From Escherichia phage ERS-1: a DNA stretch of 64,000 bases. The first letter of the stretch is position 1, and each line of letters starts with the position of its first letter. The notes under the pieces were generated by a model. It had not been told where the DNA came from, ran no database searches, and saw only the letters and a list, made by a program, of their open reading frames with translations. Made by a program: the position numbers and the translations under genes. The DNA is taken from the sequence record PP337211; one strand, written 5' to 3'. Shown one piece after another: positions 1 to 58,128 of the stretch.

Positions 1-49
1 TGTTATTGCTAAGGTTAACCTGGTAACTGGGACACAAGACTCCAGCACC
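1..49. repeat. Partial copy (3' half) of boundary repeat element E: inner-stem arm ATTGCTAAGGTTAA (5-18), 24-nt variable segment (19-42), outer-stem arm CAGCACC (43-49); cut by window start
   Basis: Matches the 3' half of the complete copy at 57,996-58,128 (same arm sequence, same spacing, same terminal CAGCACC). T4-like DNA starts immediately after pos 49. Confidence 0.6.
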
Positions 50-127
50 ATTCCTATAAATAGCAGACATTAGATATTTCTTTTCTTCGCCTTCACGAAT
101 ACGATACTTCTTACCGATTTTAAACAT
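50..127 (-). pseudogene. Truncated CDS: 26 N-terminal codons (MFKIGKKYRIREGEEKKYLMSAIYRNG) whose reading frame runs into the repeat at 1-49
   Basis: ATG at 125-127 on minus strand; no stop before the repeat or window edge; the body of the gene is absent. Confidence 0.3.
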
Positions 128-129
128 AA

Positions 130-306
130 TTACCCTTTAAGTAAGTCGTAAAAACCACCGTTCACATGCTTAGGAGCAGAAGGCCGACGAGTAGACAGAC
201 GATGACATTTAGGGCAAACATCATTTTCTCGTTCAGAAATCTTTTTAATTTTTTCATATTCATGCCCGCAATCTTCGGATTGGCATTTATAATCATACAT
301 TGGCAT
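130..306 (-). CDS. Small zinc-ribbon protein (58 aa; CxxC..17..CxxC)
   Basis: Own translation of minus strand: MPMYDYKCQSEDCGHEYEKIKKISERENDVCPKCHRLSTRRPSAPKHVNGGFYDLLKG; two Cys pairs typical of a Zn ribbon. Below the 60-aa cut-off of the ORF track. Confidence 0.4.
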   Translation of the reverse strand: MPMYDYKCQSEDCGHEYEKIKKISERENDVCPKCHRLSTRRPSAPKHVNGGFYDLLKG

Positions 307-308
307 AA

Positions 309-545
309 TTATTCCTTAAAGTGTGCTTTCAACATCTGATACAAGGACCATGCCTGTTCATTATTTTCAATAGTAACTTTCATGACAGGAAATGCTGTGA
401 AATCTTCTATTTGTTCTTGCTCTTCCTGCTCTTGTTCTTCAGCAGCCTGATATGGATTTTCAACTTCATCAAAGAATTCAGCTTCGTTAGTAGAAAGCCA
501 CGATAAAGTTTTCGTCAATGACTGTATCACGTGTTGAATATCCAA
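309..545 (-). CDS. Hypothetical acidic protein
   Basis: 78-aa ORF, phage-like AT-rich codon usage, part of a tightly packed minus-strand array; no motif recognised. Confidence 0.35.
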
Positions 546-729
546 TTATGCCAGCAGATGTCACAATTTCAGTAGGACGCCCGTAATAGTCAACATCTAA
601 AATTTTAAAAGGTTCCATACCTAAACGTCGTGCATAGATTCCGTTATCAGTATGGTCTTTAATAAAATTTTCTTGAGCCTGTTTATTTTTAAATTGATAC
701 CATTTATTAACTTCAAATTTAATAGCCAT
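487..729 (-). CDS. Hypothetical protein
   Basis: 80-aa ORF, packed in the same operon-like array; ORF overlap at the 5' side suggests a frameshift or alternative start. Confidence 0.35.
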
Positions 730-944
730 TAATAAATTTCCTTCCAGTAAGTTGTGCCATCTTCAGTGATTTCACGGAATACACCATAAATCGGTTGTTT
801 ATCACCAACCTTTTCATACACATAAACCGAAGTCAAGTGAGTAAACTTAGCAGTGTGTTCCTTTTGAACTACTACCAAATCTGGATCAAATAATATATCT
901 TCAAATTCGTCATTAGTGCAGTTCTGAACAATTTTACGTTTCAT
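729..944 (-). CDS. Hypothetical protein
   Basis: 71-aa ORF with ATGA start/stop overlap with the downstream ORF, typical of T4 early gene packing. Confidence 0.35.
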
Positions 945-1214
945 TACAATTTCCTCATTAATTGAACATTGGAGCGATGCGTTTCAGAAGAGTAGCAGCA
1001 CCTTTGGCGAATTTTCCATTTTATTCTCCAAGTTGTTTTCTGTATCGGTAGTTGATATTGATATAGTACCATAATCAACTACCGATGTATATAGTTTTAT
1101 GAAAAAATTTTAAACTTTATGCATAGCGGGCTTTGCTATAGTGTTTAATCCAACTTTCAGGAATGACTTTGTATGTTCCTAAAAATACCGCGTTGTACAA
1201 CTTAACGCCATCTT

Positions 1215-1484
1215 CTACCCACTGATCGGTAATGTATGCACACATAGCGCGAGTACGGTGTTTTTGAACAACCCCTTCCTCATCTTCAGTAAATTAAATT
1301 CATAAGGAGCAACGAACTTAATAGCCTGACCGAGTTTCCACTTAAAGTCTACACCTACGTGCGAAGTATCAATCGTTTCAATTCCTTTAGCAGGAACAGC
1401 TTTCAAAAACGCAGACTCAAGAAATTTCGCGCGAACATATCCAAACTGGGGTTTAGACTTTCCATCTTTAGGAATGATACGCAC
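1215..1484 (-). CDS. Hypothetical protein (motB-region)
   Basis: 89-aa ORF; position relative to dexA corresponds to the motB/motB.x region of T4; the product itself not recognised. Confidence 0.3.
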   Translation of the reverse strand: MRIIPKDGKSKPQFGYVRAKFLESAFLKAVPAKGIETIDTSHVGVDFKWKLGQAIKFVAPYEFNLLKMRKGLFKNTVLALCVHTLPISG

Positions 1485-1701
1485 TTTTACTTCAGAATCT
1501 TCATCTTATAACACCATGTTTAAGCTGAATGCTTACAATTTCAACCAATTTTCCTGCTGCTTTAGAACGGGATTTATCAGATACACGAGCAATTTCACCA
1601 ATATTAATAATCATAGTTATCTCTCACTTGTTAAAAAGATTTTATACTCCACAGGACCATTATACTCTGGTGAAGAGTTGTAAACTATTAATTCAAAATA
1701 G

Positions 1702-2019
1702 CTACCACTGCACTACGAGGTATACGCTAAAATCACCTGCATGAACAATGTTCAGAAGTTCAACACCATCTTCAATCCACTGGTCTGTTACCCAACCACA
1801 GACCGAAACAAATGGGGTCTTAATAGCTACTGCACGAGTCAAAAGGTCAGTAGGATCGCATTCTTGGAAGAGGATAAGCTCTGCTTCAAAGACTATAGTT
1901 TTAATTACTTCATCATTATCTAAGCGTTGTTTTGAATCACATAAGTTTTTTTTATTCTTATCATACCAATTACTTTTTGAAAAACTTTTAACCACAAACT
2001 CGCCTTTCACCCAAAACAC
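1702..2019 (-). CDS. Hypothetical protein
   Basis: 105-aa ORF on minus strand. Confidence 0.3.
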   Translation of the reverse strand: MFWVKGEFVVKSFSKSNWYDKNKKNLCDSKQRLDNDEVIKTIVFEAELILFQECDPTDLLTRAVAIKTPFVSVCGWVTDQWIEDGVELLNIVHAGDFSVYLVVQW

Positions 2020-2234
2020 CGGTCAATTTTATAACCCAAACTTAGTTCAGTAGTTTTAATTTCAGTTTTCAACCAGTTTGTAGATTTTACCAATTTCTGA
2101 TGGTCCGAGCAGTCATAAAGGTTTCCTTAATTTCTAATGGTTTAACAAGAGTGCCATACATGCTTGCTATATCCATATCAAGCAGCTTATATACAGGATT
2201 CGTGCGTATTCAGAATTATAATTAAATTTCATAA

Positions 2235-3479: not shown

Positions 3480-3492
3480 TAAATTTTCCTCG

Positions 3493-4208: not shown

Positions 4209-4214
4209 ATATCC

Positions 4215-5537: not shown

Positions 5538-5615
5538 CGTAAATTCCCTGCAATTGGTATACTAACAATACGCCCAGTATCTAAAATTTGCCTATATAAT
5601 CTTTGTGTGTCTACA

Positions 5616-14219: not shown

Positions 14220-14513
14220 TTATTCACCTACCACTTCAGCGATGATATTTTTATTATTAAAGTTTTTATCGCAATACAGAACATAATTATACTGCATTAC
14301 ACCACCAGACTTAAGCTGTTTTTGCACTTCAGCTTTCATTTCAGGACGATCACGCTCAACGATATTCATAATATCTGCTTCAATTTGAGTTTCAACCTCA
14401 GTCTGATCTGCAGTCATAGACCATTCGCACAAATCTTTATCATAACCTGCCATAGCAGGCTGAGCAGCACAAGAAGCTAAAGCAAAAATTGCAGCAAAGA
14501 TAAATTTTTTCAT
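14220..14513 (-). CDS. sp: Spackle periplasmic protein (Sp) with signal peptide
   Basis: 97-aa ORF MKKFIFAAIFALASCAAQPAMAGYDKDLCEW..; cleavable signal peptide; size and position as T4 sp. Confidence 0.7.
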   Translation of the reverse strand: MKKFIFAAIFALASCAAQPAMAGYDKDLCEWSMTADQTEVETQIEADIMNIVERDRPEMKAEVQKQLKSGGVMQYNYVLYCDKNFNNKNIIAEVVGE

Positions 14514-14573
14514 GATAATCTCCTCAGTAGTTTATGTTTATATAGTATCTCAATTTCCAACAAAAGTAAACAG

Positions 14574-14873
14574 TTATTTTAAAATTTCTGCGTAATCACA
14601 TGTTACAAACTGTTTCTCTAACTTGACGATTTTACGAAAGTATCTTTTGCATTGACGAATCTGCCGCTTCGTAGGACGCACAGCAAACTTAATAAATTCC
14701 ACTCGACCAAATGGAGGACTTTCTTCTGCTGGAATATCTAACACCAATTCCCACGTATCTGCAATAAGTGCTTTGAATTGAGTATTTTTCCTGACGCTAT
14801 ACGGTGTAGGTTTAAATAAAACAATATGCATATTATCCTCGGCAATCCACTTCGCATACTTTCTTGTCATCAA
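14574..14873 (-). CDS. Hypothetical protein (61.x position)
   Basis: 99-aa ORF between dmd and sp. Confidence 0.3.
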   Translation of the reverse strand: MMTRKYAKWIAEDNMHIVLFKPTPYSVRKNTQFKALIADTWELVLDIPAEESPPFGRVEFIKFAVRPTKRQIRQCKRYFRKIVKLEKQFVTCDYAEILK

Positions 14874-15018
14874 TGAAAGCTTTAACTAGTGCTTTATTAA
14901 CTTCAGCATATTGAGCAGTAGCCCATTGAACGTCATCTTTCATCATTGTGATTTCTTTAGTAAACATGCTTTTTTCGTTCTTAAACCACCCCATAAAAAC
15001 TACCTTTACCAATTCCAT
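14833..15018 (-). CDS. dmd: Dmd (discriminator of mRNA degradation; antitoxin against RnlA/LsoA)
   Basis: 61-aa ORF MELVKVVFMGWFKNEKSMFTKEITMMKDDVQWATAQYAEVNKALVKAFIDDKK..; size (60 aa in T4) and position immediately downstream of gene 41. Confidence 0.6.
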   Translation of the reverse strand: MELVKVVFMGWFKNEKSMFTKEITMMKDDVQWATAQYAEVNKALVKAFIDDKKVCEVDCRG

Positions 15019-15076
15019 AACAATCTCCTCATTTAACCGACAAGACTACTATACCATAATCTTGTCGGCTTGTAAA

Positions 15077-16509
15077 CTAAAATTTTAATTCATTCGCTAA
15101 AGCATCTAACTGAGCTCGAGCAGATTCGTTTCTTTGATAGCGATTCTGTTCAGCCTGAATCTGCTGTGAACCTGCTACTTCGTTCACTTCAGTTGGAGTA
15201 GAATCTTGCTCAATTTCTACCCATTTCTGATTTCCTTTTTGAACACCCATCAAAAACTTATTCCATTTGTTCTTATCACCATATCGTGATTTGATTTGCT
15301 TAATGAGTTGTTGTTCAGCAGCTGCTAGCTCCTCGGTTTCAATGACCGCAAGCATAAAATCGGCTGTTGCTGGAAGACCGGCAGATTCTGCAATATCGCT
15401 CATGTTAACATCAGAAGAGTCCCAAGCTTGCTTACCAACCTGTGCTGCAGTCCAAAGAACAGTTTCGGTTTCAAACAGCCAGAGCACGCAATTCTTCTGC
15501 GATGGCTTTAACAGTTGTGTAACTATTTTCTGAATAAACTCTGATGCGGCAAGATTTACAAATACCCAGATAGTCAACAATAATGATTGTTGGAACAAAA
15601 TTCTTCTTGAGCTTCAATTCGTTCAAAAGAGAACGAAATGTATTAGCGTCTGCTCCACCAGTAGGATATTGCTTAACGATTAAACGTCCAAGAGTAGATT
15701 TCTCACGCCATTTTTCCATTTTTCCTTTATATTCAGCGTAAGAAATATGCCCATCATCAATGTCATCAAGAGAAACGTCAAGCATGTTAGCGTCAATACG
15801 TTTAGCACAGACTTCTTCTGCCATTTCCATGGAAATGTAAAGAACATTATGTCCGAGCTGCAAATAATCTGCTGCCAATGAACACAGACCTAATGACTTA
15901 CCAACGTTAACACCAGCCATTAAAACGTTCAGTGTTCCAGTTTCAGCTCCGCCTTTAGTAATTTTATTTAGAAGTTTTTGAGTTTAAATGGAACCTTACG
16001 AGCTTTATTCATATAAGATAGCCAACGTGCTTCGTAGTCATCCATCCAATCATGACCAACGTAGCTATCAAATGAAATTGATAATGCTTGACGCATGATG
16101 TCAGGAATAGCACCTACATCTGGCATTTTCTTATTTCGTTTTTCTGGAGGAAGCTCAGCATTAGTTTGAATTTCAATTATTTTAGACGTAGCATTAAACA
16201 TCGCCCTTTGCTGAACATATTTTTCTGTTTCTTTTACTAACCAGCTGTGGTCTTCTGGAGAATCAGCTAGTTTTGAAATAAGTGTTTTTACACCAGAATA
16301 TTCTGTTTCAGTAAATGAACTATTTTCTAATGCAACATTTAACGCATTAATAGATGGAACGCTATGGTATTCATTAACATGAGATTTAATTAATTTGAAT
16401 GTATTTTTAGCTGGACCACTTTCAAAATATTCTGAATCCATATATGGCCAAACTTTTGAAAAATAAGCTTGATCAGAAATATGAGATGAGAAAGAATAAT
16501 TTCTACCAC
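15077..16509 (-). CDS. 41: Replicative DnaB-like helicase gp41, frame-disrupted (at least 3 frames)
   Basis: ORFs 15968-16441, 15471-15920 (Walker A GVNVGKSLG) and 15077-15598 match consecutive parts of recalled T4 gp41; a 1-nt insertion is visible near codon 12 relative to the recalled T4 N-terminus. Confidence 0.85.
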
Positions 16510-16846
16510 ACTTACTCCTTAAAAGAATTTAAATTTTTTCTTTGACCTTTTATTAAATGCATCTTGTAGTTGCATTGTAATACATTTTTCTACATGAGGA
16601 GCTAACTCAGCTTTTCTTTCTTTTTCAAGAACAGCAAAGTTTGATTACTGCTTTTCCATCAACCCAATCTAATTTTTTACATACACAATTTGTGTAGAAC
16701 CATTTTCTGTTTAATGACAATTTCCTGGATAACATTTTCCATGGTTTAATTATCTAAGAGATTCATTAAAGTTTTTTTCTTTTCTTTCTCTCTCCCCTGT
16801 TTTTTTTTCATTTCATAATTTCTAGATCTAAATCTAAATCATCTTT

Positions 16847-18027
16847 ATTCATTAAATTCTTCCATATCACTTAACTGATCTAGGTCAGTTTCTAAATCAG
16901 CTGCTGATTTACTTTTACTTTCTGGAGATTTAAATTTTTCAACCTTTGAGTTAATCAATTCATCAACTTCCAGCTTCAACAATTTCATTACTATCAATAG
17001 CACCTAACTGATAAGCACGTTTAATAGCGTCTCGGAATGGTTGATGCTTAAATAAAGGACCCCAGAATGTAGTGCAGTTGGTATCTTTTGCACGCCAAGA
17101 TTTTTCTTCGCGAATCATCTCGCCGGTTTCTTCGTCAAGAAATTCACGAGCATACCAGCCATTTTTAGGTTTTACCACAAATCCTAATTCAAGAGCCATA
17201 TCTAACAATCCAGAATAAGGATCGATACCACCGTCAAATTTAACATCAATAAAGAATTTACTTTTTTCTTTAACGGTACGAGATTTTTCTACATTTAGAA
17301 CAAATTGATACCCCTGAAGATCAGAACCATCTTTAATCTGGCGCTTACCGATAATGAATACAGTATCAGCCGAATACATTACGCCTGTACCACCTGTCAT
17401 CACGGTTTTACTAAACATTTCAATTTTTTCAATTGTATGGTTAACCGCAACACATGGAATATTTTTAATGCTAAAATAAGGAGTAACAATACGGAATAAT
17501 GACTTCAGTGATTTAGCACGAGTCATATCTGCCACAGATTTTTCATTCAAGGCATCTTCCGTTTCTTTCTTAGAAGCCATATTACCAATTGAGTCGATGA
17601 ATACAATAACTTTTTCACCACGCTCAATAGCTTCAAGCTGATTCACCATATCAATTTTCAGCTGTTCAACTGACTGGATTGGTGTATGAATTACTCGTTC
17701 CGGGTCAACTCCCATGGATCGCAAATAAGCTGGAGTAATACCAAATTCGCTATCATAGAATAGACAAACCGCGTCAGGATATTTGTTCAAATACGCCGCA
17801 ACCATAGTCAAAGACATATTTGATTTAAAGTGTTTAGAAGGACCTGCAAAAATGGTTAAACCAGACTGCATACCGCCATCAATCGCACCAGAAATAGCGA
17901 TATTGAGCATTGGAATTTTTGTACGGATTACATCCTTTTCATTAAAGAATTTAGATGTAGTCAGTTCAGCAGTCATTTTAGAAGTGGAAGCTTTAATCAA
18001 ACGGGATTTTAAATCTGCAATAGACAT
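16847..18027 (-). CDS. uvsX: UvsX RecA-like recombinase, C-terminal frameshift
   Basis: 354-aa ORF MSIADLKSRLIKASTSK..GPSKHFKS.. (Walker A) matching T4 UvsX; acidic C-terminal tail (..LSDMEEFNE) continues in another frame to ~16847. Confidence 0.9.
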
Positions 18028-18104
18028 TCATTTTTTCCATAGGCATCATTATATTTTCCTCACTGGTTAAAGATAGGGTAATTATAACACAATAAATTTA
18101 GGCA

Positions 18105-18955
18105 TTAATCAACTGCTATTGGATGAATAGCATTAAACTTATGAAATGCTTCTGATTTTTCTTTGCGCGAAACACACATACGAAGAACCTTTAATGGCTC
18201 GTCTTCTTCACCCAACGATTTTCTCTTTTCGATATTCGATGTTTTCCAACGAGCTTGCTCTGGAAATTCTCTATTGATTTGCTCAAGCGCTCTATTATGT
18301 TTAGAATTACTACGAATTGAACTACACCCGCCAGGAGCTTGTGATTTTCCAGATACAACCAAATATTTGAACAAGGCCAAATGCGGATAACCTTGATTAA
18401 TTAAATTGAGAAATGCATACATATCTTCGCATAAATCAATTTTTCCATACCCAATTTGTTCTGTTGTTTAAGTTTTCCGAGGTCATACCAGGTATTCGTG
18501 AATCCATATGAATTTTCACGATAATTACCCCAAGATGAAGTAATTTTAAAAATTGGTAGACGAGCATGACCGTGATAATACCCGCAATCCATTGCATCCT
18601 CAACGTATTGAATTAATTCATAGAATTGCTCACGAGTCAATTGATTGACTTTATCTACACGCCGTTTATCGTCTCTCTTTCGTATTGAACTCATACGAAT
18701 AGTAGTATCATCATCAATCATCCAGATTCGTTGACCTGCATACATATCAGTAATTGCTTTACGAGTACCAGCAATTCCGTTAACATCATCAGGAATAGTT
18801 ATAATTTTAGCTCTAGACCCGTAAGCGTCATAATAAGCTTTTTCTTCGTGTTCACGTACTACAATATGAGGTTCATAATCAGTCGGAAACATATCAAGGG
18901 CAGAAACTGCCCCGACACGCTGATAACTTGGAATTACGAATTGAATCATTTCCAC
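18105..18955 (-). CDS. GT-A fold (family-2-like) glycosyltransferase at the locus where T4 carries beta-glucosyltransferase; split into two ORFs
   Basis: N-terminal VIPSYQR and DxD motif (RIWMIDDDTT); ~280 codons; does not resemble the T4 bgt N-terminus as I recall it. Confidence 0.5.
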
Positions 18956-19685
18956 TCACCGTTATAATCTTTTTATAATATGAGTTTTCACCAGTGTTCC
19001 ACCAATGGTCAACTAAATAAAACTGATTTTCGTACACATGAAGACTTCCAACGTTCCATATAATAGAACCTGCTTTATATTGCCGCGATGGGTCGCCTGC
19101 ATTCAAATCAGATACTAATTTATCTAGTACGTATTTTTGCCATGCATAATCATTACGATAGCCTGCCCAGCAGTCATTGCTTCTCATATTAACAACTGCA
19201 TTGACTTTCTTGTCACGAATCAGATACTGTACTGTATTCGTACACATGAAATCTGACATACCATCTTTATTGTAGTCAAACTGCATGGATGGACGAGTAT
19301 AAATCATGATACCACGCCGAGAATCAGGATTTTGACCAAGCTCAGCTAAACACATATCATACTGGGCATAGTTATCTTCTGACCAGATGGCCCAACCATA
19401 ATTCGAGTTAATTTCGCCTTTAGAAGATGCTACCTGTTGCCAAATCTTTGGTGTTTCACCTGGAATATCTTTAACAAACAGACTTTGAGACTTATACCAT
19501 TCAAGTTCACGTTGAATGTATTCATCATTAAGAGCGCCAAAAATAAACGGTTCATCTGCTACAAATGATGCACCAATAATTTCAATAGTTTTAACACCAG
19601 TTTTATCAACTACGAAATCTTTTTCCTTTAATGCAAGCCCCAAATGAAGACGGATTTCTTCAACTGTCATAGAGTCACTAATCAT
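18894..19685 (-). CDS. 42: dCMP hydroxymethylase gp42 (C-terminal frameshift extends the ORF)
   Basis: MISDSMTVEEIRLHLGLALKEKDFVVDKTG.. matches recalled T4 gp42; thymidylate-synthase-like fold residues present; T4 gp42 is 246 aa so the true stop is probably near 18945. Confidence 0.85.
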   Translation of the reverse strand: MISDSMTVEEIRLHLGLALKEKDFVVDKTGVKTIEIIGASFVADEPFIFGALNDEYIQRELEWYKSQSLFVKDIPGETPKIWQQVASSKGEINSNYGWAIWSEDNYAQYDMCLAELGQNPDSRRGIMIYTRPSMQFDYNKDGMSDFMCTNTVQYLIRDKKVNAVVNMRSNDCWAGYRNDYAWQKYVLDKLVSDLNAGDPSRQYKAGSIIWNVGSLHVYENQFYLVDHWWNTGENSYYKKIITVSGNDSIRNSKLSACRGSFCP

Positions 19686-19861
19686 TTAAACCTCAATTGA
19701 TACATTCATATTTAACTTGTAACAGTAATAAACCCCAACCTATAATAAGTGTCGGAATCATACAAGGAACCGTTACGCTATAGTATATACTTATTATAAT
19801 CATCAAGATTAAAAGCAATACTGTTAAAATTTTGCTTTTCATTCCTTCTCTCTGATGATAA

Positions 19862-20092
19862 TTACTTGGTTTTGTTGTGCAGATTTTTTAGTTTCACCTG
19901 CAATTGACCAAATAAAGGTAATAAACCAACCAATAATTGACCAATTAAACAGTAAAGATGTGAAAAAAAGATTCCTACTGTCGATTTTGACCCGCGCATC
20001 AAGGCGATGAACCACGGAAGCATGTATATAATAATAGCCAACACGCCTGAAACTAAAACCATAAAAATTGAACCTGCTACTAAAGTTTCCAT
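19862..20092 (-). CDS. imm: Small polytopic membrane protein; Imm (superinfection immunity) by position
   Basis: 76-aa ORF with two hydrophobic helices; located between 42 and 43 as imm in T4. Confidence 0.45.
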   Translation of the reverse strand: METLVAGSIFMVLVSGVLAIIIYMLPWFIALMRGSKSTVGIFFSHLYCLIGQLLVGLLPLFGQLQVKLKNLHNKTK

Positions 20093-20099
20093 GTTTTCC

Positions 20100-20465
20100 T
20101 CACTTAGTCAAATTTTTTACACATGAATTATAAGAATTCACTACATACTCCATTGGAGCATTTTTACCAGTACGCCATTGGTAATTATTAGCCCAATTAG
20201 CCCAAAGTTCAGCACAGTAGTTTTCAATTTTTTCTTCGCGTGTAATTACATCTGAATTACGATATGCTTGAGCAGATTCATCTGGACGAATAGCTTCGTC
20301 AAAATTCGCCTGCATTTGTTCTACTGTCTGTTTTGGAGCTTCTTTATAACACTTAACATTAGGATTATAAAATTTGCTTGAACAATTTACAATTTTTCCT
20401 GCATCAGACTGATTTACTACTGGTCCTTGAGCTACACAGCCAGTAAGACCCAATGTAATAACCAA
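20100..20465 (-). CDS. Putative lipoprotein (imm.1 position)
   Basis: 121-aa ORF starting MVITLGLTGCVAQG (lipobox-like LTGC). Confidence 0.35.
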   Translation of the reverse strand: MVITLGLTGCVAQGPVVNQSDAGKIVNCSSKFYNPNVKCYKEAPKQTVEQMQANFDEAIRPDESAQAYRNSDVITREEKIENYCAELWANWANNYQWRTGKNAPMEYVVNSYNSCVKNLTK

Positions 20466-20492
20466 AGGATAGCAATTTTCATAATAATTTCC

Positions 20493-20750
20493 TCAAATAC
20501 AAGTAGTAATTACTCCAGTAGTGCTTACACAGGTATTACCTAATTGAACACCAAGCGTTCCATTAGTATTCATATGAAGATTATCATCAATTTTTGTTGA
20601 TACTTTACCATTCATGTGAATAACAGTATTAGATTCAATCACATTCTGAGTGTCATTTTCAATATCAATAAATGGAACAGCTGCTAATGCAACTAGAACA
20701 ACTGCTAATGCAACTAAACACGCTGCTAAACAACCATAAACAATTTTCAT
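20493..20750 (-). CDS. Putative membrane protein (43.1 position)
   Basis: Hydrophobic helix MKIVYGCLAACLVALAVVLVALAAVPF within ORF 20493-20939; true start uncertain. Confidence 0.3.
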   Translation of the reverse strand: MKIVYGCLAACLVALAVVLVALAAVPFIDIENDTQNVIESNTVIHMNGKVSTKIDDNLHMNTNGTLGVQLGNTCVSTTGVITTCI

Positions 20751-20931
20751 TTTATTCTCCAAATCCGTATCAGTTGATAGTTGTATAGTACCATGGAAGA
20801 ACAGAGATGTAAACCGTTTTGTGAAAAAATTTTTAATGAATTTACAGGACCTAGAATCATCTATTTTTCCTAAGTATAGATTTATATTACTTGTATGAAA
20901 AAGGGACCTGGAGGTCCCTAGATTTATTCTA

Positions 20932-23630
20932 TCAGCCAAACAGGAAGTCTAACGAAGCTTTTTCCTCATAGTCCATACCTGCCGATTCACACATACCCGC
21001 AAGTGGTTTAACAAACGATTTTTGGAACAAAGTTGAGTAGTCAATCCAAGACAGTACGTCAGAACGAATTTCTTTTGGAAGTTCTGTGCCTGATGGCCAA
21101 GCAATGCACTTGTCACCAAATGGATTTCCTTCACGTAATGGAAGAACCATTACCTTATTTCCATCCAAAATTGGAGCTACACCTAAACCACTAACAGCTC
21201 GACGATAAGTTAGTACGCCACGAATATGGAACGGGCATTTAAATCCTGGCCAACCTTTATCATCATATTTCGCTATATCGTTCGCAGTTTTTACTTCAGC
21301 AATAACTTTATAGTCAAGTTGACGATATTCTTTCTCAAAGTTCTTGTAGTATTCTTGGACAGACTCTTCACCTTCCTGAAGAATACGACGAATACTTTCT
21401 TCGAGAGCTTCTTGTACTGCTTTTGGTGTTGAACTCTGTTGAGTTTCCATACCCATAATTTTTAGATGCGGTTCAGCAAATCGTTTATCTTCCATATCAT
21501 AAACGTTCAGAGCATAACGTTTTTTCGCTTTCCAAAATCCACCAACACCCTTTGAACCAAGCGGAGGGCAAGAAATAGCTTCACGGTCCATATGCATCAG
21601 ATGCTCGCGGTTATTCATATAATCACATAACTCACGATATGCAACATCAATCATAGGTTCCATCTTTTTCTTACCAAACTGATTCATGAATTCAACTAAA
21701 TCATTTTGTTCTTTAAAGCGGTCAAGACCTACTTTTTCAATTACTTTATCTACACAAACATATACCGAATCAGTATCACCTGCTGCGATGAAATCTTCAC
21801 CATTAGTTCCACATACTTTATTCAGATATTCATTAATTTTGCGAGCAATCCACTGAATACCGACTTGACCGAAAATTGTGATAGCAGTAGCATTTCGCAA
21901 ATCATAGTAACGGAAATGAATATTACCAAGAGCACCATAAAGACTGTTAATAAGAATTTTACGGTTTCAGCTGATTTGTGTTAGCAAGTGTAGCGGCTTT
22001 TTCACATTCTTCAATCAGACTATTGAGAACAGATTCGGTGTAATTCGATAATTCGTTTAAGAAATCATCACTGAACTTAACATATCGTTCAACTTCTGGT
22101 TTAGTTGAACAAGACCCTGCACCTTTCATAATAATCTTTTTAATAGCTTCGGCATTCATTTCTTCAGCGAACATTTTCTTTTCCAATCTTTACGCTGGAA
22201 AAATACTTTAGCGATTTCCTTTGGAATGATACCTTCTTGGTGCTTATCATACATCCATCCATTCGGAGAGCAAGAATATTCATCACTTGGCTTAGGAGCT
22301 GTTCCTGCGATATATTCATGAATTGGATGAACTTTAAACTGCCCACGAATAGTCTCAGGACTAATGTTAACCTGACGAATAATGCTAGGATACAGAGACG
22401 TCAAGTCAAAACTCATAATGTATCGACGAGCAATCGGTTTAGGTTCAAACACAAATGCACCTGGCAAAAACTGTTTAACGTGCGAACCTTGTTGAGGAAT
22501 AACCTTATGTTCACCTTTCAGTGAGTTAAAAATAATAGCATCCCAAGTTTTAATAGGACTCATTACACCAGAAAAAGGCATTTTAGCATAATAAGACATA
22601 CTTAAAACTAGATCGATAAACCCACGAATTTTATCAATTGCTTGAACTGATTCTACGTCAATGATGTTATAACTAATGTATCGTTGATGATTAGTCTCAC
22701 GAAGTTTATTAATAGGACCGTCGTATGGTAATTTACCTTTTTTGGTTTCATGTTGAGCAACTGATTCCAAAGAGAATGACGGCAAATTAGTAAATGCGAA
22801 TTTCTTGTACAAATCTAAATAATCAAGAATAGATACGCCATCAATAGAATAAATTTCTTTGCTACCGTACACATTTTGAATTAGTTTAGATTTTACACGA
22901 CCGATTGGAGAGAAACGTTTCATACTGCGTTCACCCAGAATCATTTTAACGCGATTCATGATATATATGGAACGTCAAACCCCTCAATATTCCAACCTGT
23001 AAAAATAGCAGGTCGTTTCTGTTCCCAGAGATTGATATATTCCATGAGCATATCACGCTCATTATCGAACGGCATATAAATTACTGGTCAAGAATTTCTT
23101 GAGGAACTTCATCACCACCTTCACAGTCAAGCTTAGCAGCTAACTTTGCATCCCATTTTGATACTGAACCGTACATTGAATTCAAAAGGTCGAAAACATA
23201 AAAACGATCATCAATTGAATCGTAATGAGTGATAGCATCAATTTCATATTCTGCTTTCATTGGGTCAGGAAATTTATCACCAGTAACCTCAATGTCACAG
23301 TTAGCTATACGAACAAATTTTCGGTCATAAATAATTTCTGAACCATATGTATCACTGATATAAGCGAGTTTAAAATCGTTCATACCGAGAGCTTCGAGAC
23401 CGATGTCTTCCATTTGTTTCATCCAATCTCGTGCATCTTTCATTGATGGAAATTTTTGAGGAGCACAAGTTTTTACCATAAATGTCTTTGTATTTTGACT
23501 CTTCCTTACAATGCCTAAACATAGTTGGAAGATATTCTACTTCACGAGTACGTTCCTTTCCGTTTTCATCAATATAACGTTCAACAATGTTATTTCCGAC
23601 TGTTTCAATAGAGATATAAAATTCTTTCAT
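20932..23630 (-). CDS. 43: Family B DNA polymerase gp43, reading frame broken ~5 times
   Basis: ORFs 23370-23630 (MKEFYISIETVGNNIVERY..), 23081-23479, 22156-22959, 21959-22186 and 20932-21900 (..DTDSVYV.. polymerase motif C, KKRY) follow the T4 gp43 sequence in order; 3'-5' exonuclease (FDIE) and polymerase motifs present. Confidence 0.95.
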
Positions 23631-23708
23631 AGATATTCCTTAGTTTATAGCCCGAGTTATTAGGCTCTTGATATATTATACTCCAAATAAGGGGCCGAAG
23701 CCCCTTGC

Positions 23709-24077
23709 TTAATTACCAATCGTATATTTAGGAACGAGTTTCCATTCATGTTTTTGTTTAAAAGAAATAACTCGGAAGTTATTAGTTAAATCTTTCATAA
23801 AAGTTCTTTGACCAGGAACGATTTCAATCAGTCCCCAATCTTCTAACAGCCATGCAATCGAATCACGACGAACTTCATCTTCTTCTGTCATTTCAACTTG
23901 ACGACCATCCATACGAAGCATTTCTTTAAAATGAACGATATAGTATAGTCCTTTTTTCTGAAGAATGTGGCAGGACTGATACAGAACTTTATCTTTATTA
24001 TTAGCAATTCCCATACGAGTCAAGGTTTCTTTTACTTTCAGAAAATCTTCAGGTTTTTTAAGAGTAATTTCAATCAT
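23709..24077 (-). CDS. regA: Translational repressor RegA
   Basis: Intact 122-aa ORF MIEITLKKPEDFLKVKETLTRMGIANNKDKVLYQSCHILQKKGLYYIVHFKEM.. matching T4 RegA in sequence, length and position. Confidence 0.85.
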   Translation of the reverse strand: MIEITLKKPEDFLKVKETLTRMGIANNKDKVLYQSCHILQKKGLYYIVHFKEMLRMDGRQVEMTEEDEVRRDSIAWLLEDWGLIEIVPGQRTFMKDLTNNFRVISFKQKHEWKLVPKYTIGN

Positions 24078-33967: not shown

Positions 33968-34168
33968 TTATACCTTAGCAATTTTTAGGTCTGCAAATTT
34001 TTTCTTGCGTTGATTTTTCATGCGACGAATAGTCTTATCGGAAATTTCATGCTTTTGATAAGCTTTAGATTCTACACCAAAAGCTTTAACATCAAATTCT
34101 GACAAGATATATTGAACCAACAATTCACGGACAGTATTGCGTCCAATTTTCTGATCATTCTGTTTCAT
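33968..34168 (-). CDS. Hypothetical small basic protein
   Basis: 66-aa ORF. Confidence 0.3.
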   Translation of the reverse strand: MKQNDQKIGRNTVRELLVQYILSEFDVKAFGVESKAYQKHEISDKTIRRMKNQRKKKFADLKIAKV

Positions 34169-36419: not shown

Positions 36420-36446
36420 TGGTGTTTAATCCTATGCATGATTTCT

Positions 36447-36674
36447 TTATTTTTGCCTAAGATTAAATCCGCGTTCGTTCGGATTTCCCAAATATCCGCA
36501 TGTTCTTCTTATTGTGTTCATCTTTTTAGGATCAGTTTCTCCACAAATAGAACAAACAAACCCGTTTTCAGTAGGAGTCATTTCATGGGTACTTCCACAC
36601 GTAAAACATTTATCTACTGGCATATTAACGCCAAAATAATCTAAATGTTGTGCAGCATAATCCCATAGGTTCAT
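36447..36674 (-). pseudogene. nrdD: 3' fragment (last ~75 codons) of anaerobic ribonucleotide reductase nrdD; the 5' ~85% of the gene is missing
   Basis: Translation ..CFTCGSTHEMTPTENGFVCSICGETDPKKMNTIRRTCGYLGNPNERGF.. contains the C-terminal Zn ribbon and glycyl-radical motif (RxCGYLG) of class III RNR; upstream codons (KKKKKG, from the T-run) are not NrdD-like. Confidence 0.8.
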
Positions 36675-36676
36675 GC

Positions 36677-36780
36677 CTTTTTTTTTTTTTTTAGGTGCTG
36701 TCGATTCTGTTTGTAGTCGTCTGTTTAACCTTAGCAATACTAACTGAACCAAGTACAAAACAGTCAATTGCTAAGGTTAA
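36677..36780 (+). repeat. Boundary repeat element E, copy A: T16 run, AGGTGCTGT, 23-nt segment, 14-bp inverted repeat with 28-nt loop; lacks the 3' CAGCACC arm
   Basis: Direct comparison with copies at 36,927-36,971, 57,689-57,776 and 57,996-58,128. Confidence 0.7.
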
Positions 36781-36819
36781 GTCAATTGCGTAGTGAAGTA
36801 AGAAAGTTGAAAAAATCAG

Positions 36820-36848
36820 TTTACATTGACGATGATTTTGATTACAAT
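36820..36848 (+). promoter_or_regulatory. Sigma70-type promoter candidate (TTTACA, 17 bp, TACAAT) pointing into high-GC block 1
   Basis: Read directly: -35 at 36820-36825, -10 at 36843-36848, 17-nt spacer; AT-rich context between repeat copies A and B. Confidence 0.4.
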
Positions 36849-36926
36849 ACTTCTCAACCAGTTTAAGTTTAAATTAATCTTTTGAGGTTTGTCGGAACAA
36901 TTTATATTAAACTGGTTCTTTTTAAA

Positions 36927-36971
36927 CAGGTGCTGTCGATTCCGTTTGTAGTCGTCTGTTTAACCTTAGCA
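36927..36971 (+). repeat. Repeat element E, copy B (5' half only): CAGGTGCTGT + CGATTCCGTTTGTAGTCGTCTG + TTTAACCTTAGCA; left terminus of high-GC block 1
   Basis: Differs by 1 nt from copy A over 32 nt; near-identical inverted copy at 57,689-57,720. Confidence 0.7.
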
Positions 36972-39900
36972 TATGTCTAATGTCGAAGCCACACACCACC
37001 GCCAGAGTTAAAGGATCGACTCCCATGGAACACCAGCACCTTCGGCATCAAGCTGAGCAAGATCTTCCCGTGGCTGGTTCAGGAAGGAGCTGCCGGGATC
37101 AATCGACTTCCCGTGGCGGACCTCCTCAACGCGCCCGGAAGGTGAACAGGCCTGCGCATGACCTTCGCCCAGCTCCGTCCAGGATGACCTGGCGGTGAAC
37201 GGTCGCCTTGGCGGGACGTTCAACCTGCTTCGCCGCCGGAAGGATGACGAAAGCGACGGGACCGCGGGCGCCGCCGCACGGGCGACTGTCCGTGAATGCC
37301 CGAACCTCCCTGGCCGGCTCGGCATGAGTTCGCCCTTCACGTGGTGGGGCCTTCCACCTCCCGGAGGAAGGCCGGGCGTCTGGGCGTCCGGACGATGTCA
37401 CCTGCCTGGAGCTGCGGCGGCGGCTCGTCACGCCTGCTCGGCGAAGGACCTGATTGGTGGGGCCTGGCTGTCTGGGTTGAAGCCCGGGACAGGTACTGTA
37501 CGAACACCGAGCATCCGAGGACCCTCCGGTGATGGTGGACATGGCGGGGATCAAGCGCAAGGACGCCAAAGGAAACTACCTGGGCCGTCCTACGGGATGG
37601 GCGGGGCGAAGATGTGCCTGGGCTCGGGCTCCCGACGATGATGGCCGTGCGCGGCCCCCGCTTCCGCTGTTCGACGCGGCACCTGCCCGGAGGGTCGGCG
37701 CCTGGTCGCGGAAGGGGCGCGGAGGTTCGAGGCCGCGGGGCCGGAGGGTCAGGCCCTCCTGGACACCCTCCACCCGGGTGCCCGTTCGCATCGGAGAAGC
37801 TGGCGAAGGCTTGCGAAGCCCGGGCGAAGGCCGTGGGCGGCGTCACATGACCTGAGCGGTCGCCGCTGCCGCTTCCCGAAGGAGGGGACGGGAACTACGA
37901 CTGGGACCCGGCGACCAACCGGCTGATCGGGCTCCTCCCGCGGACCGGGTCAAGATGGCGATGGTGGCCTGCGCGGAAGCCGGACTGGGGCGTCCCGGGG
38001 CCGGCGATGAGATCGCCTTCGGCTAGGCGAGGCGGAGGAGGCCGCGGAAGCTGCCTGGTTGCGGACGTGTACGCCGCCCCAACTCCCGTCAAGGTGGACG
38101 TGGAGATTGGGCAGGCTGGGGTCATCGCTTGGGCTGGACGGGAGCCGCCTTTGCGGTTCCGCTACGGGTGACGTGGGTGTCGGCTCACTCGTTTGCGGAT
38201 CGCTGCGGGTGTACCCGCTCGACCCCGCAGGAAGTCCGGGCGAACCCCTGGAGAACGATATGCGCCGTGGCAACGACAGCGTCCGTGGACCTCGAAGTGT
38301 TGGCGAGCGTGAGAAAGGGGGCCCTGGTCGACGGCGGCGGTGAGGAGGAAGTCTGGATGCCGGGTTGGTGTCCGCGCGGTCGAGAAGAAGGGCCTGCGGC
38401 CACCTGGACCGTCACCGAATGGATCGCCGGGTCAGAAGGGGCTGATATGAATGATCGCTGTGCGCTGGGAAGTTCTGGGCGGCGATGATCTGGGAGGCGG
38501 TCCTGGTCTGGCTCCTGGTAGGCGGTTGCCGGTGGACGCCTTCGAGTCCTTGACCTGGCCTCCTGCTGGGCGGCACTTCCTCGGAACGTTGCCCGGTTTC
38601 CGCTGAAGGAGGAGGTGAAATGAGCGAACGTCAAGACCGCCTGGGACCGCCGCGATGTTGGGCTGGCCGGTCGTCGCGGGCTGGAAGGGGTGATCAAGGT
38701 CGGAGCCGTCCTGGTCGGCCGGGCGGTGGCGCGGCTTCGACCGGGTTCAACGGCTTCCCGCCCGGTGCGATGACTCGCCGGAGCTGTACGCTGACCGCGG
38801 TGTACCTGCCGTCGGTGGCGGAGGCGTTGGCTCTTTAGGCTCGCCTGCGACGGCTTCGCTCTACATTCTTTCCCTGCTGTCCGAACTGTATGGAGGCCGC
38901 GGGGAAGGCGGGCGTGAAGCGGGTCGCCTTCCCGGTCGACTACGGGCTGCGATCCGGGGTGGGTTGCTGAGTGGAATTCGACGGTTGATGAGGCTTTGGA
39001 AGTCGCCCGCCGTTAGGGGTTGAAGCGAGGTGGGTAGATGTCTGAAGCCGGGCGCGGGACTCCCTCCGCCCCGTCATCCGGTCGCTGGACCCGGTGCGCG
39101 TGGAGAACCCCTTTCGCGCCCGGGACCCCGGATGTGAACTATGCCGGGCTGGATTGAATTGAAGTTCGCTGAACGCTGGCCGCCCTGGGCGGACCGCTTC
39201 CGAGTGGACCGACTCCACCTGCCCAGCACCTGGCTCACCCGTCGCCGGGTGCCGGGGCCGGGCCTTCCTCCTGCTGAAGGTCGGGAGACGGAGTGGTTGC
39301 TGATTCGATGGAGCGGTGGCCGCTGCGACGCCGGGCCGGGTTCCGCGAGAACGCCTGTATGAGGTCTGCGCTGCCGTTGGATGCCTTCCAGAAATGAGGA
39401 GATTTGTAAATGTCGCCGCGGTGAGGCGGGCGGAAGGTGAAAGCCCACCGCTACACCGCCGCTGGCAGGGTTGAACCAAATTGAGGCCGCGAAGGAGTAC
39501 GGGGTCCTTGCACCGCTACCGTGATGGGAAGCGGACCGCCGCCTGGACGATGAACCGTGCCTGTCCCGGCGAGGTCCGAGCCCGAGGTCTGCTTGCTGTT
39601 CCGCCGCCGCTCGGGCAAGACCTGCGCGAAATCGCCGCCGCTCTGGGCTGACTCGCCTCGGGTTGTCCAGATGGCAGGACGGAAAGCGCCGGTTGAGCGC
39701 CTTCGTGAATATTGGGGCTTTTGAGGGGGATCGGAAATGGCGGAACTGCCGAAGTGGAGACGAGGATGGTTGACTTCCTGAAGAAGCGGTGCCGGAGGGG
39801 CCGTGGGTCCTGACGGCCATCGTCCGGACGGGAAAACGGAGACGGTACCGTCTTGTTGCCCACTGCTTAAGGCCGCGGAGTGGATCGAGGGCATCAGGGC

Positions 39901-54601: not shown

Positions 54602-54648
54602 GGTAAGTAAGTTAAGTAAGTTAAGTATCTATCTATCTATCTATCTAT
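54602..54648. repeat. Simple-sequence repeats: (GTAAGTTAA)-like units followed by (TATC)5
   Basis: Read directly: GTAAGTAAGTTAAGTAAGTTAAG then TATCTATCTATCTATCTATCTA, inside a lower-GC island (~54,470-54,700) within block 1. Confidence 0.8.
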
Positions 54649-55479
54649 AAAGGGCTGTTTTATATGGCCTTTTTGCCCGCTTGACTTTTTACTTTTTCGG
54701 ACGTGGAAGTGAAGCGCGACCCCTCGAACCTAAGCGGAGGACGCCGCGTGCCTGCTTGGGTCTGTTGCCCGTCGCTCCCGCGCCTCCCCCGCGGGCGAGC
54801 GCGACCCGCCCTTGGCGAACGCAGGCTTCGCCAGACTCGCGGCGAGGATGTCCTTGGGCGTGAGGCCGGGACGGATCGCCGCGTGATGCGCGATTGACGG
54901 GCGGTGCTGCCCAAGGGGGAGGTGATGTGCCCATTGAGAAACTGAAGCCGAAGCCGATGGTGCCCTTGCCCTTGGATGGAAGCAGTACCTGGAGTTGTTC
55001 CGCACGTCCCGACCTGGGTGGGTGGAAGTACCGTGCGCGGAGGCGTGGGCGTCTCCGGCTCCGCCGTTCCACTATGCCGTTGAAGAATGACCCGGAGTTT
55101 GCCCTGGCTCTGCAGGACGCCCGCCAAGCGTGGATTGATGAGATCCTGTTGCGCGGCCCTGAAGCGGGCGCGGGACGGCGCGGCAGCGCCCGATCGGTCG
55201 GGGAAGTTCAAGGACGAAATTATTGGATGAGCGGGTGTACTGTGATTCGCTGATGGCCTTGACGCTCCGCGCCCGCCGTGCGGAGTTCGGGAGGACGGGA
55301 GGACGTGGCCTGTATCACTGCCCTCGGCCCGGTGGGCGCCGATCGTCCCGGGCCCCGGCGTCGACCGGACGACTGGGAATTGTTTGGGACCTCGCCCGCG
55401 GGACCGTGGGCCGTCCGACCGGGAGGGCGATGTTCGCCTGGTCCCAAGCGGGCAGGCGGTTGCCATCGCCGCCCGCCCG

Positions 55480-56072
55480 GACTACCCGATCGAGCGGCGC
55501 GAGGCGGAGCCCGGCGAGCTGCGGGCACCACGTGGACCCGGAGACGGGAAGGAGTCGGAGGCGACCTGGTGCGGGTACGGGTTGCAGCTCGCCTTCCTCG
55601 GCGTCCCGATCTTCGAGGTGCTGTATGAGGGGACGCGCGGCCCGGGCAAGACCGACTGCCGATGGACTTCCTCCAGCACGTGGGGAAGGGCTACGGTTGG
55701 AGCGGCGGGGTCCCCGTTCCGTCTGGCAGGGACCCCCGCTGTCGGACGTGATCAGACACAAAACCAACAAGTGGTTCAAGCGTTTCTTCCCGGCTAAGTA
55801 CAGGCAAGGTGGGTTGGCGACCTTCCCGGCACGGCGAGGAGCTGCTGCTGTGTCGGCGGTCGCCGGAGGATTATTGGAACTACCCACGGCCACGTGCCCG
55901 TGGATTGGCTGGGAAGAACTCTTGGGCTGGGCCTGACAGCGCCACCGTTGCGACGTCCTGCCGCCGCTCCCAAGCCGGGGATGCCCCGCCGCGACCCGGG
56001 CGACCGGCCCCACGGCCCCGCCCCTGGCTGGGTCAGGCCCGCTCCCGCCTCCCCCGTTGCGCGGTCGGGTGA
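55480..56072 (+). CDS. Candidate P-loop NTPase, frame-disrupted; function unassigned
   Basis: Walker A-like GTRGPGKT at 55,630-55,653 in context ..GVPIFEVLYEGTRGPGKTD..; protein-like continuation in other frames (..FLQHVGKGYGWSG.., ..LSDVIRHKTNKWFKRFFPAKY..). Boundaries arbitrary. Confidence 0.2.
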
Positions 56073-57688
56073 TCCTGGACGCGATGCGAGACGGCGAGCG
56101 CGAACCGCCCCGGGTCGCCTTCCCGGTTCCTTTCCCATGAGAACCGGGTTGCTCCTCGCTGACCCGGAGGGCCTGGTATTCGAGCCGCGGCCCGGAACCC
56201 CTCCGACTCGCCGCCTGGCTCCACGGCTCCTGCAGGTTGTTTGCGGGAGGATGTTGTACGAGGCTTGCACCGCGGGACGCACCGCGGCGCCCTCCGTCCC
56301 GCTGTCGGTGATCCCGAAGCGGTGGAAGATCGACCTGCGGCTTCCACCGGGCCGGAGCCCTTTGCCGTCCTGTGGTGGGCGGAGTCGAATGGGAGCCGTT
56401 CGAGCGGAATGGCCGCGTGTACGGAAGGTGCGGGGGCGATCTGTACCTGATCCTGTAGCGGGTACGGCTGGAACGGGAACGCGAGCAGGGCGTCCTGCGG
56501 CTCGCCTCGGAGGTCGCCCAGTGGGTGAAGGACCGGGAGGAGGATTGGGCGCTGGAAGGTCGGGTCAGCCCTGGCCCCCGCGACCTTCTCCTCACGTGGA
56601 GGTATGGGGCCTGGATTGCTGTGGAGGCGGAGAGAGGGTGTGCGCCTGGACGCCCGCGGGAGGCTGGGCTCGCGGGTGGGCTGGGAGGGGTTGGCTGTCG
56701 GAGGGCGCTGCCTCCGGCGGCGGGGACCGCGCCAGGTCCCTGGGCTGTTCGGTTTTTTCGACCCGTGCTGGTGTCGTCCAGACGGTCCCGCGCTGCCCCG
56801 CGATGAGGTGTACCTGGGATGACGTGAAGGCGGAGGCGGAGGACCGGTTGGTGACGCGACCGCTACCGCGTGCGGGGTAAGCTGCGTGGTGCGGTGGTGG
56901 CCCGCAGAGGCTCGGCCGGGTCCTCGCCTTCGGGCGAGAATCCGCGAACCTGGAGAACCGACGGCCGGCGAGACGGCAGCCCTGCCGACCTGCGGGGCGT
57001 ATTAACCGCGCTCCCGCGCTGGCCCACGCTCCAGACGCCGCCTGGGCGGGACCGAAGGGCGCGCGAGGCGGGCGAGACGTACCTACCCCGCCCTCGGAGG
57101 AGACGGCAGGGTGGGCTATCGGGAGCGCCTGGCCTCCGCCGCTCCTCCTCGGCGGTTGAACCTGGGCGCCTGGACCTGCCCTGCAGCGGAGCCCTTTGCC
57201 AGCCGATCAAGCCGGCCAGGACGTGCCCGGAGGCGATCCAGGAGATGATCCTGCCTGACGTGGACCTCCTGGGGCTGCCCACGCGTTCGCCCGTCCTGTG
57301 GTTCCGCCAGCCTATCCGGTGAGGCCCTGGCCTCCTCGTCCAGACCGCCTCGCCCGGCCCCGCGGAGGATGGCCTACCCGGACCTGGCGGATGACCGCCG
57401 GGAGGGCCTGCGCCCTGACTGGGTGATGATCCAAGCCGGAGGCGCCCGCTGTTGGCCCGGTCGGAGGTGATCAAATGGGGCCCGAGTCCTCTGCGTGCTG
57501 CTGTCCAAGTTACGAGGCGGAGGCAGGACGGCTTCGCGCAGGCTTGGGAGCGCTGTCCGCGTCCTGGAGCTGGGCCTTGTCCCGGCTCTGGCAGCCGGTG
57601 AGAAGTTGGTGGTCCCGCAAGGAGGAGTGGGTGCTGGCGGATGAGCGGGCCATGGGGCTGAACCACGTCCCTGTGGTTGCCTTTACGC

Positions 57689-57776
57689 CAGACGACTACA
57701 AACGGAATCTACAGCACCTGAGTATGTATTGCTAAGGTTAGAGGGAAACACGATAGAATCCAACAGCACCTAAAAA
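57689..57776 (-). repeat. Repeat element E copies D2 (57,689-57,720, right terminus of block 1, inverted relative to copy B) and D1 (57,721-57,776, 5' half plus inner-stem arm), both in reverse orientation
   Basis: Reverse complement reads TTTTAGGTGCTGT-TGGATTCTATCGTGTTTCCCTC-TAACCTTAGCAAT-ACATACT-CAGGTGCTGT-AGATTCCGTTTGTAGTCGTCTG. Confidence 0.7.
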
Positions 57777-57995
57777 GGTTCAACTTTTTACTAAATAATA
57801 AATGTTGTAGTATCTTCTTAAAACGAAAAATTTAATTTGCTTTAAAACCTTCCCAATTTTTTTTGCCTTTTTTTAACATACGTCAGAACATGGAAGAATG
57901 GTGGCCGTTTTTTACACTGTGAAGAAACAATTTTGAACTTTTAAATGACTTCCATTTATATTGTTTTAATTTCCTTTTTTCCCGTTTGTTGTTAA

Positions 57996-58128
57996 TTTTT
58001 TTTTTTAGGTGCTGTTCCGGATTTATCGTGTTTCCTGATTAACCTTAGCAATACGTAACTGAACGAAGTACATAAAAACACCAATTGCTAAGGTTAAAAG
58101 GTTACACAAACCCTGGACAAGCAGCACC
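57996..58128 (+). repeat. Repeat element E, complete copy C: T11, AGGTGCTGT, 23 nt, TTAACCTTAGCAAT, 31-nt loop, ATTGCTAAGGTTAA, 24 nt, CAGCACC; abuts high-GC block 2
   Basis: Nested inverted repeats (outer 7 bp GGTGCTG/CAGCACC; inner 14 bp) read directly; loop similar to copy A loop. Confidence 0.7.

Follow-up and report, generated by a model that had tools for sequence, protein, structure and literature searches.

Oxford Nanopore adapter and barcode sequence almost certainly accounts for the structured repeat family in a 64-kb stretch of Escherichia phage ERS-1

The oligonucleotides that appear in untrimmed Oxford Nanopore (ONT) reads have been printed in a number of publications. According to the Porechop_ABI preprint, the ONT ligation adapter reads AATGTACTTCGTTCAGTTACGTATTGCT where reads start and GCAATACGTAACTGAACGAAGT where they end; the complete 60-nt top strand, leader included, is found in PMC11533379, and a newer adapter variant, that of Kit 14, in PMC12886913. 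Sample barcodes (BC) BC01-BC11 are printed in PMC8643650 and PMC9229804, and the cutadapt patterns used on ONT reads in two unrelated genome papers specify AAGGTTAANNNNNNNNNNNNNNNNNNNNNNNNCAGCACCT as the 5' adapter (-g) and AGGTGCTGNNNNNNNNNNNNNNNNNNNNNNNNTTAACCTTAGCAAT as the 3' adapter (-a) (PMC11984142; PMC11727664). Such sequence can also lie inside a read: according to the summary of White et al. (2017) in PMC7092973, in silico chimerism places dissimilar fragments with an internal adapter in one read, through fast reloading of the pore or adapter-mediated joining, and Porechop is described there as screening for "middle adapters" and splitting or discarding the reads that contain them (PMC7092973). 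Here, these published sequences are compared with a repeat family in a stretch of 64,000 nucleotides from Escherichia phage ERS-1 (sequence record PP337211; the whole stretch is referred to as the window), in which an earlier note had described six full or partial copies of one structured element at the boundaries between dissimilar segments. The repeat family is almost certainly ONT adapter and sample-barcode sequence retained in uncorrected read sequence, and as such a laboratory artefact and no feature of a genome.

This identification is carried by the fit of the element, part by part, to the published oligonucleotides. The native-barcode flanks are present in the window as published, namely as AAGGTTAA-N24-CAGCACCT and AGGTGCTG-N24-TTAACCTTAGCAAT. 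The 5' pair (AAGGTTAA and CAGCACCT) encloses a 24-nt slot at 11-49, 57734-57771 and 58090-58128, and in degraded form at 37004-37041, while the 3' pair (AGGTGCTG and TTAACCTTAGCAAT) does so at 36693-36738, 36928-36971 and 58007-58052. When the window was scanned on both strands by Sellers alignment with 24 barcodes and the adapters, a barcode could be placed in every 24-nt slot: BC02, BC03, BC04 and BC05 at 0-4 edits, and a BC07-like sequence at 5 edits in the eighth slot. In the order of the window, these are the reverse complement of BC03 ending at 42 (0 edits), BC02 ending at 36724 (1 edit) and again at 36959 (0 edits), the reverse complements of BC02 ending at 57711 (2 edits) and of BC04 ending at 57763 (2 edits), BC04 ending at 58036 (4 edits), and the reverse complement of BC05 ending at 58121 (0 edits). 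As a control, the best match of each of 480 shuffled barcodes was sought anywhere in the 64 kb; it lay at 6-7 edits for 448 of them and at 4 edits for only one. The orientation of the barcodes always fits the flank, the reverse complement following AAGGTTAA and the forward sequence following AGGTGCTG. For the BC07-like slot, the distance anchored at the slot is 6, with the next-best barcode at 9, and at 400 random sites the anchored null had a minimum of 7 and a mode of 11.

Outside the barcode flanks, sequence of the ligation Y-adapter is found in the expected order and orientation. The "loop" of the fullest copy is identical over 58053-58069 to the read-end adapter GCAATACGTAACTGAACGAAGT (0 edits), and the loop at 36739-36754 is 2 edits away from it. 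On the minus strand, the adapter top strand is matched at 1 and 4 edits, and the loop at 58053-58083 reads there as 33 nt of the published top strand (...TTTTTAATGTACTTCGTTCAGTTACGTATTGCT), including part of the T-rich leader. The variant is the older one, with a top strand that begins AATGTACTTCG, and not that of Kit 14, which begins CCTGTACTTCG. Set against the ONT native-barcoding set as a whole (BC01-BC24 and the ligation Y-adapter), the flanks in the window are identical, BC02-BC05 are identical or near-identical and BC07 is degraded, and the only differences are basecalling errors (0-5 edits per barcode), truncations, and the T-runs next to AGGTGCTG. The earlier note had itself named the identity of the copies with a known cloning linker as something that would refute its observation, and a published commercial set of adapters and barcodes is in effect such a linker.

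As far as its presence and anatomy are concerned, the element had been described accurately: all six copies were found at, or a few bases off, the positions given for them, and the full form does consist of a T-run, GGTGCTG, ~24 nt, an arm, a ~30-nt loop, a second arm, a further ~24 nt and CAGCACC. Allowing at most 2 mismatches, the 14-nt arm TTAACCTTAGCAAT occurs seven times at these sites and once more at 33969, by chance; about 0.5 matches would be expected, and none of 100 shuffles reached eight. A seventh, degraded copy, absent from the original list, lies at ~36972-37041, and it is this copy, rather than that at 36927-36971, which directly adjoins block 1, a Yuavirus-like segment with homology from 37042. 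Short T-even inserts, which lie outside the element, make up 36781-36926 and 57772-57995 between adapter copies. The 24-nt segments had been taken for diverged versions of one another, which is wrong, as four or five different barcodes, each separately designed and read in one or the other orientation, are involved. Likeness is confined to copies of the same barcode, that is, to BC02 at 36701, 36936 and (as reverse complement) 57689, and to BC04 at 57741 (as reverse complement) and 58015; differences among copies of one barcode are basecalling errors, and different barcodes are unrelated by design.

Two further properties of the element are real and could be read as signs that the element is of biological origin and marks the borders of mobile modules in a T4-like genome, be it as a site of recombination or insertion, as a structured RNA, or as a signal for packaging or replication. 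The predicted hairpin does form, the 133-nt copy folding at -25.7 kcal/mol and thus better than shuffled sequence (z = -5.9), and the copies do coincide exactly with breaks in composition, where GC content rises from ~0.33 to ~0.68 at 37 kb and dips at 57-58 kb. Both, however, are accounted for by the preparation of a library. The 5' and 3' read-throughs are the two strands of the same duplex oligonucleotide and hence reverse complements of each other, and wherever the 3' adapter of one molecule adjoins the 5' adapter of the next, this produces an arm, an adapter "loop", a second arm, and outer stems of GGTGCTG and CAGCACC; the strong folding arises because the arms come from the two strands of one synthetic duplex. 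The composition breaks, in turn, arise because neighbouring molecules come from different samples, T-even coliphage DNA having ~35% GC and Yuavirus-like DNA ~68% GC. Published synthetic oligonucleotides explain the parts of the element, the T-runs excepted, and the supposed modules on its flanks are pieces, riddled with frameshifts, of unrelated phages with different hosts. Among 50,697 phage records, the 133-nt element is present in no ordinary T-even record, which bears out the statement of the earlier note that the pattern is not a feature of T4, and a search of the whole window against Rfam 15 at gathering thresholds, a check that the note had proposed, gave 0 matches. With its occurrences elsewhere being on record termini and eukaryotic telomeres, a biological origin of the element has a negligible probability. 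Among the three readings that had been offered, a family of recombination or insertion sites and a structured RNA or replication/packaging signal thus fall away, and the third, seams of an artificial concatenation, is correct.

The occurrences in public sequence data show the same composite in another setting. The 133-nt element has 13 matches among the phage records, in unrelated phages of Klebsiella, Acinetobacter, Enterobacter, Bacillus, Yersinia, Pseudomonas and Xanthomonas and in one jumbo coliphage, and 12 of the 13 matches lie in the outermost 30-65 nt of the record, at its start or its end, as is characteristic of an untrimmed adapter. Examples of terminal ONT sequence in GenBank phages are OQ790081.1 (42457-42521), PP841128.1 (41153-41216), OR487170.1 (1-38), OR809231.1 (5-40), OQ378339.1 (1-35) and OP583592.1 (1-34), and in several such records the adapter underlies an annotated "hypothetical protein". 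The adapter pattern has 0 matches in IMG/VR and was found five times in JGI and other metagenome contigs, none of which is the source contig of the window. Three of these five matches are at contig ends (JACADM010000169.1, JACADM010000179.1 and JACADM010000192.1), where eukaryotic (TTTTAGGG)n telomere repeats are directly followed by an exact AGGTGCTG-BC01-TTAACCTTAGCAAT-ACGTAACTGAACGAAGT; the assembly here kept an adapter that had been ligated to the natural ends of chromosomes. The slots of the other two metagenome matches fit no barcode and are accompanied by no composition break, and these matches were taken as chance. In these deposited assemblies the untrimmed ONT sequence is terminal and single, whereas in the window the same composite is internal and repeated.

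Read in this way, the window can be parsed from end to end, all adapter units being given on the plus strand. It starts within an adapter end and 5' barcode (1-49), in which TGTTATTGCT, approximating the top-strand end ...ACGTATTGCT, is followed by AAGGTTAA (11-18), the BC03 slot (19-42) and CAGCACC (43-49). The first library molecule (50-36677) is a 36.6-kb T-even, Tequatrovirus-like fragment that extends from the dda/modA region to the nrd region. After it, a run of 15 T (36678-36692), present in no published adapter, separates the T-even insert from AGGTGCTG, with which a 3'-type adapter adjoining the next 5'-type adapter begins (36693-36780). The left part of this unit comprises AGGTGCTG (36693-36700), a BC02 slot (36701-36724) and TTAACCTTAGCAAT (36725-36738), and the right part the Y-adapter ACTAACTGAACCAAGTACA (bottom strand, 2 edits), followed by AATTGCTAAGGTTAA at 36766-36780. 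The second molecule (36781-36926) is a short T-even fragment with no recognizable barcode after AAGGTTAA on its left, and it is succeeded by a 3'-type adapter (36928-36971) with AGGTGCTG (36928-36935), a BC02 slot (36936-36959) and TTAACCTTAGCA (36960-36971). The degraded 5'-type adapter that comes next (36972-37041) contains an unassigned stretch, AGAGTTAA as an approximation of AAGGTTAA, the BC07-like reverse complement ending at 37033, and CAGCACCT (37034-37041). The part of this unit at 36972-37003 was also tried as a garbled copy of the 60-nt leader, for which a local alignment score of 12 on either strand offers no support.

The third molecule, block 1 (37042-57688), is a 20.6-kb fragment of a Yuavirus-like Pseudomonas phage reaching from the DNA polymerase to the terminase. 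A partial copy (57689-57719) directly follows, with the BC02 slot at 57689-57711 and CAGCACCT at 57712-57719 and without the AAGGTTAA flank, and then a 5'-type adapter (57720-57771) composed of GAGTATGTATTGCT (approximating CAGTTACGTATTGCT), AAGGTTA, the BC04 slot (57741-57763) and CAGCACCT (57764-57771). The fourth molecule (57772-57995) is a 224-nt T-even fragment from the region of the gene 59 helicase loader, and with BC04 flanking it left and right, it represents a small library molecule in full. The fullest copy (57996-58128) begins on the left with 11 T (57996-58006), AGGTGCTG (58007-58014), the BC04 slot (58015-58038) and TTAACCTTAGCAAT (58039-58052), and continues on the right with the Y-adapter ACGTAACTGAACGAAGTACAT (58053-58073, bottom strand, 0 edits), AAAAACACC, AATTGCTAAGGTTAA (58083-58097), the BC05 slot (58098-58121) and CAGCACC (58122-58128). 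The fifth molecule, block 2 (58129-64000), comes from another genome region of a Yuavirus-like Pseudomonas phage, has its genes on the opposite strand and continues beyond the right-hand limit of the window.

The DNA between the adapters confirms that the segments have different sources. The first molecule is collinear with T-even phages, with an identity of 94% to GADU22 and 96% to vB_EcoM_Lutter. The alignment to GADU22 ends at 36420, where GADU22 has a putative homing endonuclease beside the nrd genes (window 36420-36676, as compared with 37260-38099 of the GADU22 locus), and there are gaps between the aligned T-even blocks (e.g., 14223-23709), as expected for T-even mosaicism. Within the second molecule, 36781-36877 matches hundreds of T-even records (best 93.9%), and within the fourth, 57779-57846 is ~87% identical to 489 T-even records. 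Block 1 forms one collinear alignment to the Yuavirus phage PaTs-2, at 81.7% identity and with 888 indel events, and block 2 is 82-83% identical to the Yuavirus phages PSP2, LKO4 and Luminis. Barcodes 02, 03 and 04 go with T-even DNA, and 05 and 07 with Yuavirus DNA. The window is therefore made up of five or more separate molecules and a barcode remnant that has no insert, and the molecules represent at least two kinds of phage whose hosts differ.

The quality of the sequence between the adapters is that of uncorrected read sequence, which is what the window is, and not that of a genome. The T-even block contains 93 indel events, 86 of which are not multiples of 3 (7 are), and its longest stop-free stretch is 354 aa as compared with 901 aa in the reference. 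Five essential genes, T4 gp43, gp41, gp46, dda and a-gt (alpha-glucosyltransferase), are each spread over 2-5 frames, in pieces that are mostly 90-100% identical in protein. The Yuavirus-like blocks, where read quality is very poor, were judged by frame-switching in tblastn, as stop-free stretches are uninformative at 68% GC, where the references are long in all frames. Block 1 has 43 indel events per kb and the proteins of block 2 are fragmented across frames in tblastn, and protein identity is only 31-37% in block 1 and 31-51% across the Yuavirus blocks despite ~82% identity of the DNA. The adapter copies, too, carry individual errors of 1-5 edits, so that no consensus can have been made. 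These broken genes also bear on whether the window could be a deliberately engineered construct with cloning linkers between its cassettes, a notion that the synthetic and modular nature of the element might invite. The "cassettes" are random fragments, the linkers are degraded by errors and irregular, different sample barcodes would serve no purpose in a construct, and no such construct was met with in the scans of phage records, viral contigs and metagenomes, a plasmid database not having been searched; the probability of deliberate engineering is accordingly minute.

It remains to be considered how the molecules came to be joined. They almost certainly derive from a pooled, multiplexed phage run in which molecules carried barcodes 02, 03, 04, 05 and probably 07 and the adapters were left untrimmed. 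At 36739-36765, 57720-57733 and 58053-58083, the barcodes are separated by sequence of the Y-adapter, and each molecule therefore had its own sequencing adapter, which makes it most likely that consecutive molecules went through one pore and were not split into separate reads, giving what is called an "in silico chimera" or "middle adapter" read. We infer this route with somewhat more confidence than doubt. The segments map to unrelated sources (Tequatrovirus and Yuavirus), each of them being internally collinear, and the window resembles described chimeric middle-adapter reads in that dissimilar fragments are parted by an internal adapter in one read. It differs from them in its extent, as such reads usually have two fragments, whereas here there are at least five molecules, five barcodes and one molecule with mismatched barcodes.

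The same arrangement might have arisen in library preparation, if fragments had been covalently joined via adapter or barcode oligonucleotides and had passed the pore as one physical molecule. Dissimilar fragments joined by an adapter ligated between them are among the chimeras reported by White et al. (2017), as summarized in PMC7092973, and some irregular ligation after pooling is suggested by the mismatch of BC03 and BC02 on the first molecule and by the BC02 copy at 57689 that lacks a flank. The Y-adapter sequence between the barcodes, however, points to separate, fully adapted molecules. The outer arms of Y-adapters are non-complementary and carry the motor protein, so that they are no substrate for end-to-end ligation. 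Covalent chimerism is accordingly judged quite unlikely, and the unsplit read is favoured over it. A join made after sequencing, either by concatenation of reads at the level of files or by an assembler that built a contig from untrimmed, non-demultiplexed and unpolished reads, would more easily accommodate at least five molecules with five barcodes, which are many for one unsplit read, and would agree with the coincidence of window position 1 with an adapter, as at the start of a read or record, and with the absence of the source record from the two public collections that were scanned. Against this, an overlap assembler has no reason to join T-even and Yuavirus reads, which share no sequence, and the individual basecalling errors kept by the adapter copies speak against a consensus; a join of this kind is considered unlikely.

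Several observations depart from the structure of a textbook read. The 36.6-kb T-even molecule carries BC03 on its left and BC02 on its right, which may reflect either cross-ligation of barcodes after pooling or an insert-less BC02 molecule that was read next to it. The ends of block 1 are BC07-like and BC02, and the 224-nt T-even fragment has the same barcode (BC04) at both ends; mismatched end barcodes are compatible with cross-ligation after pooling or with insert-less barcode molecules in between. The copy at 57689-57719 adjoins Yuavirus homology with neither a AAGGTTAA flank nor an adapter and resembles no normal start or end of a read, the adapter at 36766-36780 has no recognizable barcode after it, and no published adapter contains the T-runs that precede AGGTGCTG (36678-36692 and 57996-58006). 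At least five molecules is, moreover, an unusually high number for one unsplit read. A biological origin is not suggested by any of these points.

Reverse complementation leaves the composite nearly unchanged, and both strands can be parsed about equally well. The longer match to the adapter top strand and the T-specific errors described below moderately favour the minus strand of the window, which was probably the strand that was sequenced. In both Yuavirus-like fragments, errors concentrate on A of the window strand, which matches the reference at 63-68% as compared with 81-92% for the other bases. In detail, the plus-strand match rates to the reference in block 1 and block 2, respectively, are 0.68 and 0.63 for A, 0.81 and 0.82 for T, 0.84 and 0.85 for C, and 0.92 and 0.91 for G. 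The two blocks have their genes on opposite strands and yet share this asymmetry, which therefore follows the sequenced strand, not the coding strand, and is technical, not evolutionary. Sequencing of the minus strand would make T the base that is called badly. In the Yuavirus M6, thymidine is reported to be replaced by 5-(2-aminoethyl)deoxyuridine (PMC12191111; PMC6449724). The A/T errors may, as a tentative explanation, be the footprint of an M6-type hypermodified thymidine in two further Yuavirus-like phages, and the T-runs could be a similar footprint of glucosyl-hydroxymethylcytosine. If so, hypermodified thymidine would explain why the Yuavirus fragments are basecalled worse than the T-even DNA in the same sequence. 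The T-runs themselves (15 T at 36678-36692 and 11 T at 57996-58006) probably result from faulty basecalling where adapter gives way to modified DNA. Poly-dA tailing was also considered as their source and was rejected, as a 3' dA tail would have placed them on the other strand relative to AGGTGCTG.

The finding matters as quality control only, and the window is not to be interpreted as a genome. ONT strings find their way into public records, among them the ends of deposited phage genomes, and at times they are annotated there as coding sequence. It is advisable to screen for AAGGTTAA-N24-CAGCACCT, AGGTGCTG-N24-TTAACCTTAGCAAT and ACGTAACTGAACGAAGT before any scan. Gene calls, divergence estimates and inferences of horizontal transfer made from this window would be spurious. 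The layout of repeat, segment and repeat, the GC breaks and the apparent mosaic of T4 and Pseudomonas phage sequence are products of library chemistry and read splitting, and nothing biological remains for the repeat itself, which is a known technical artefact.

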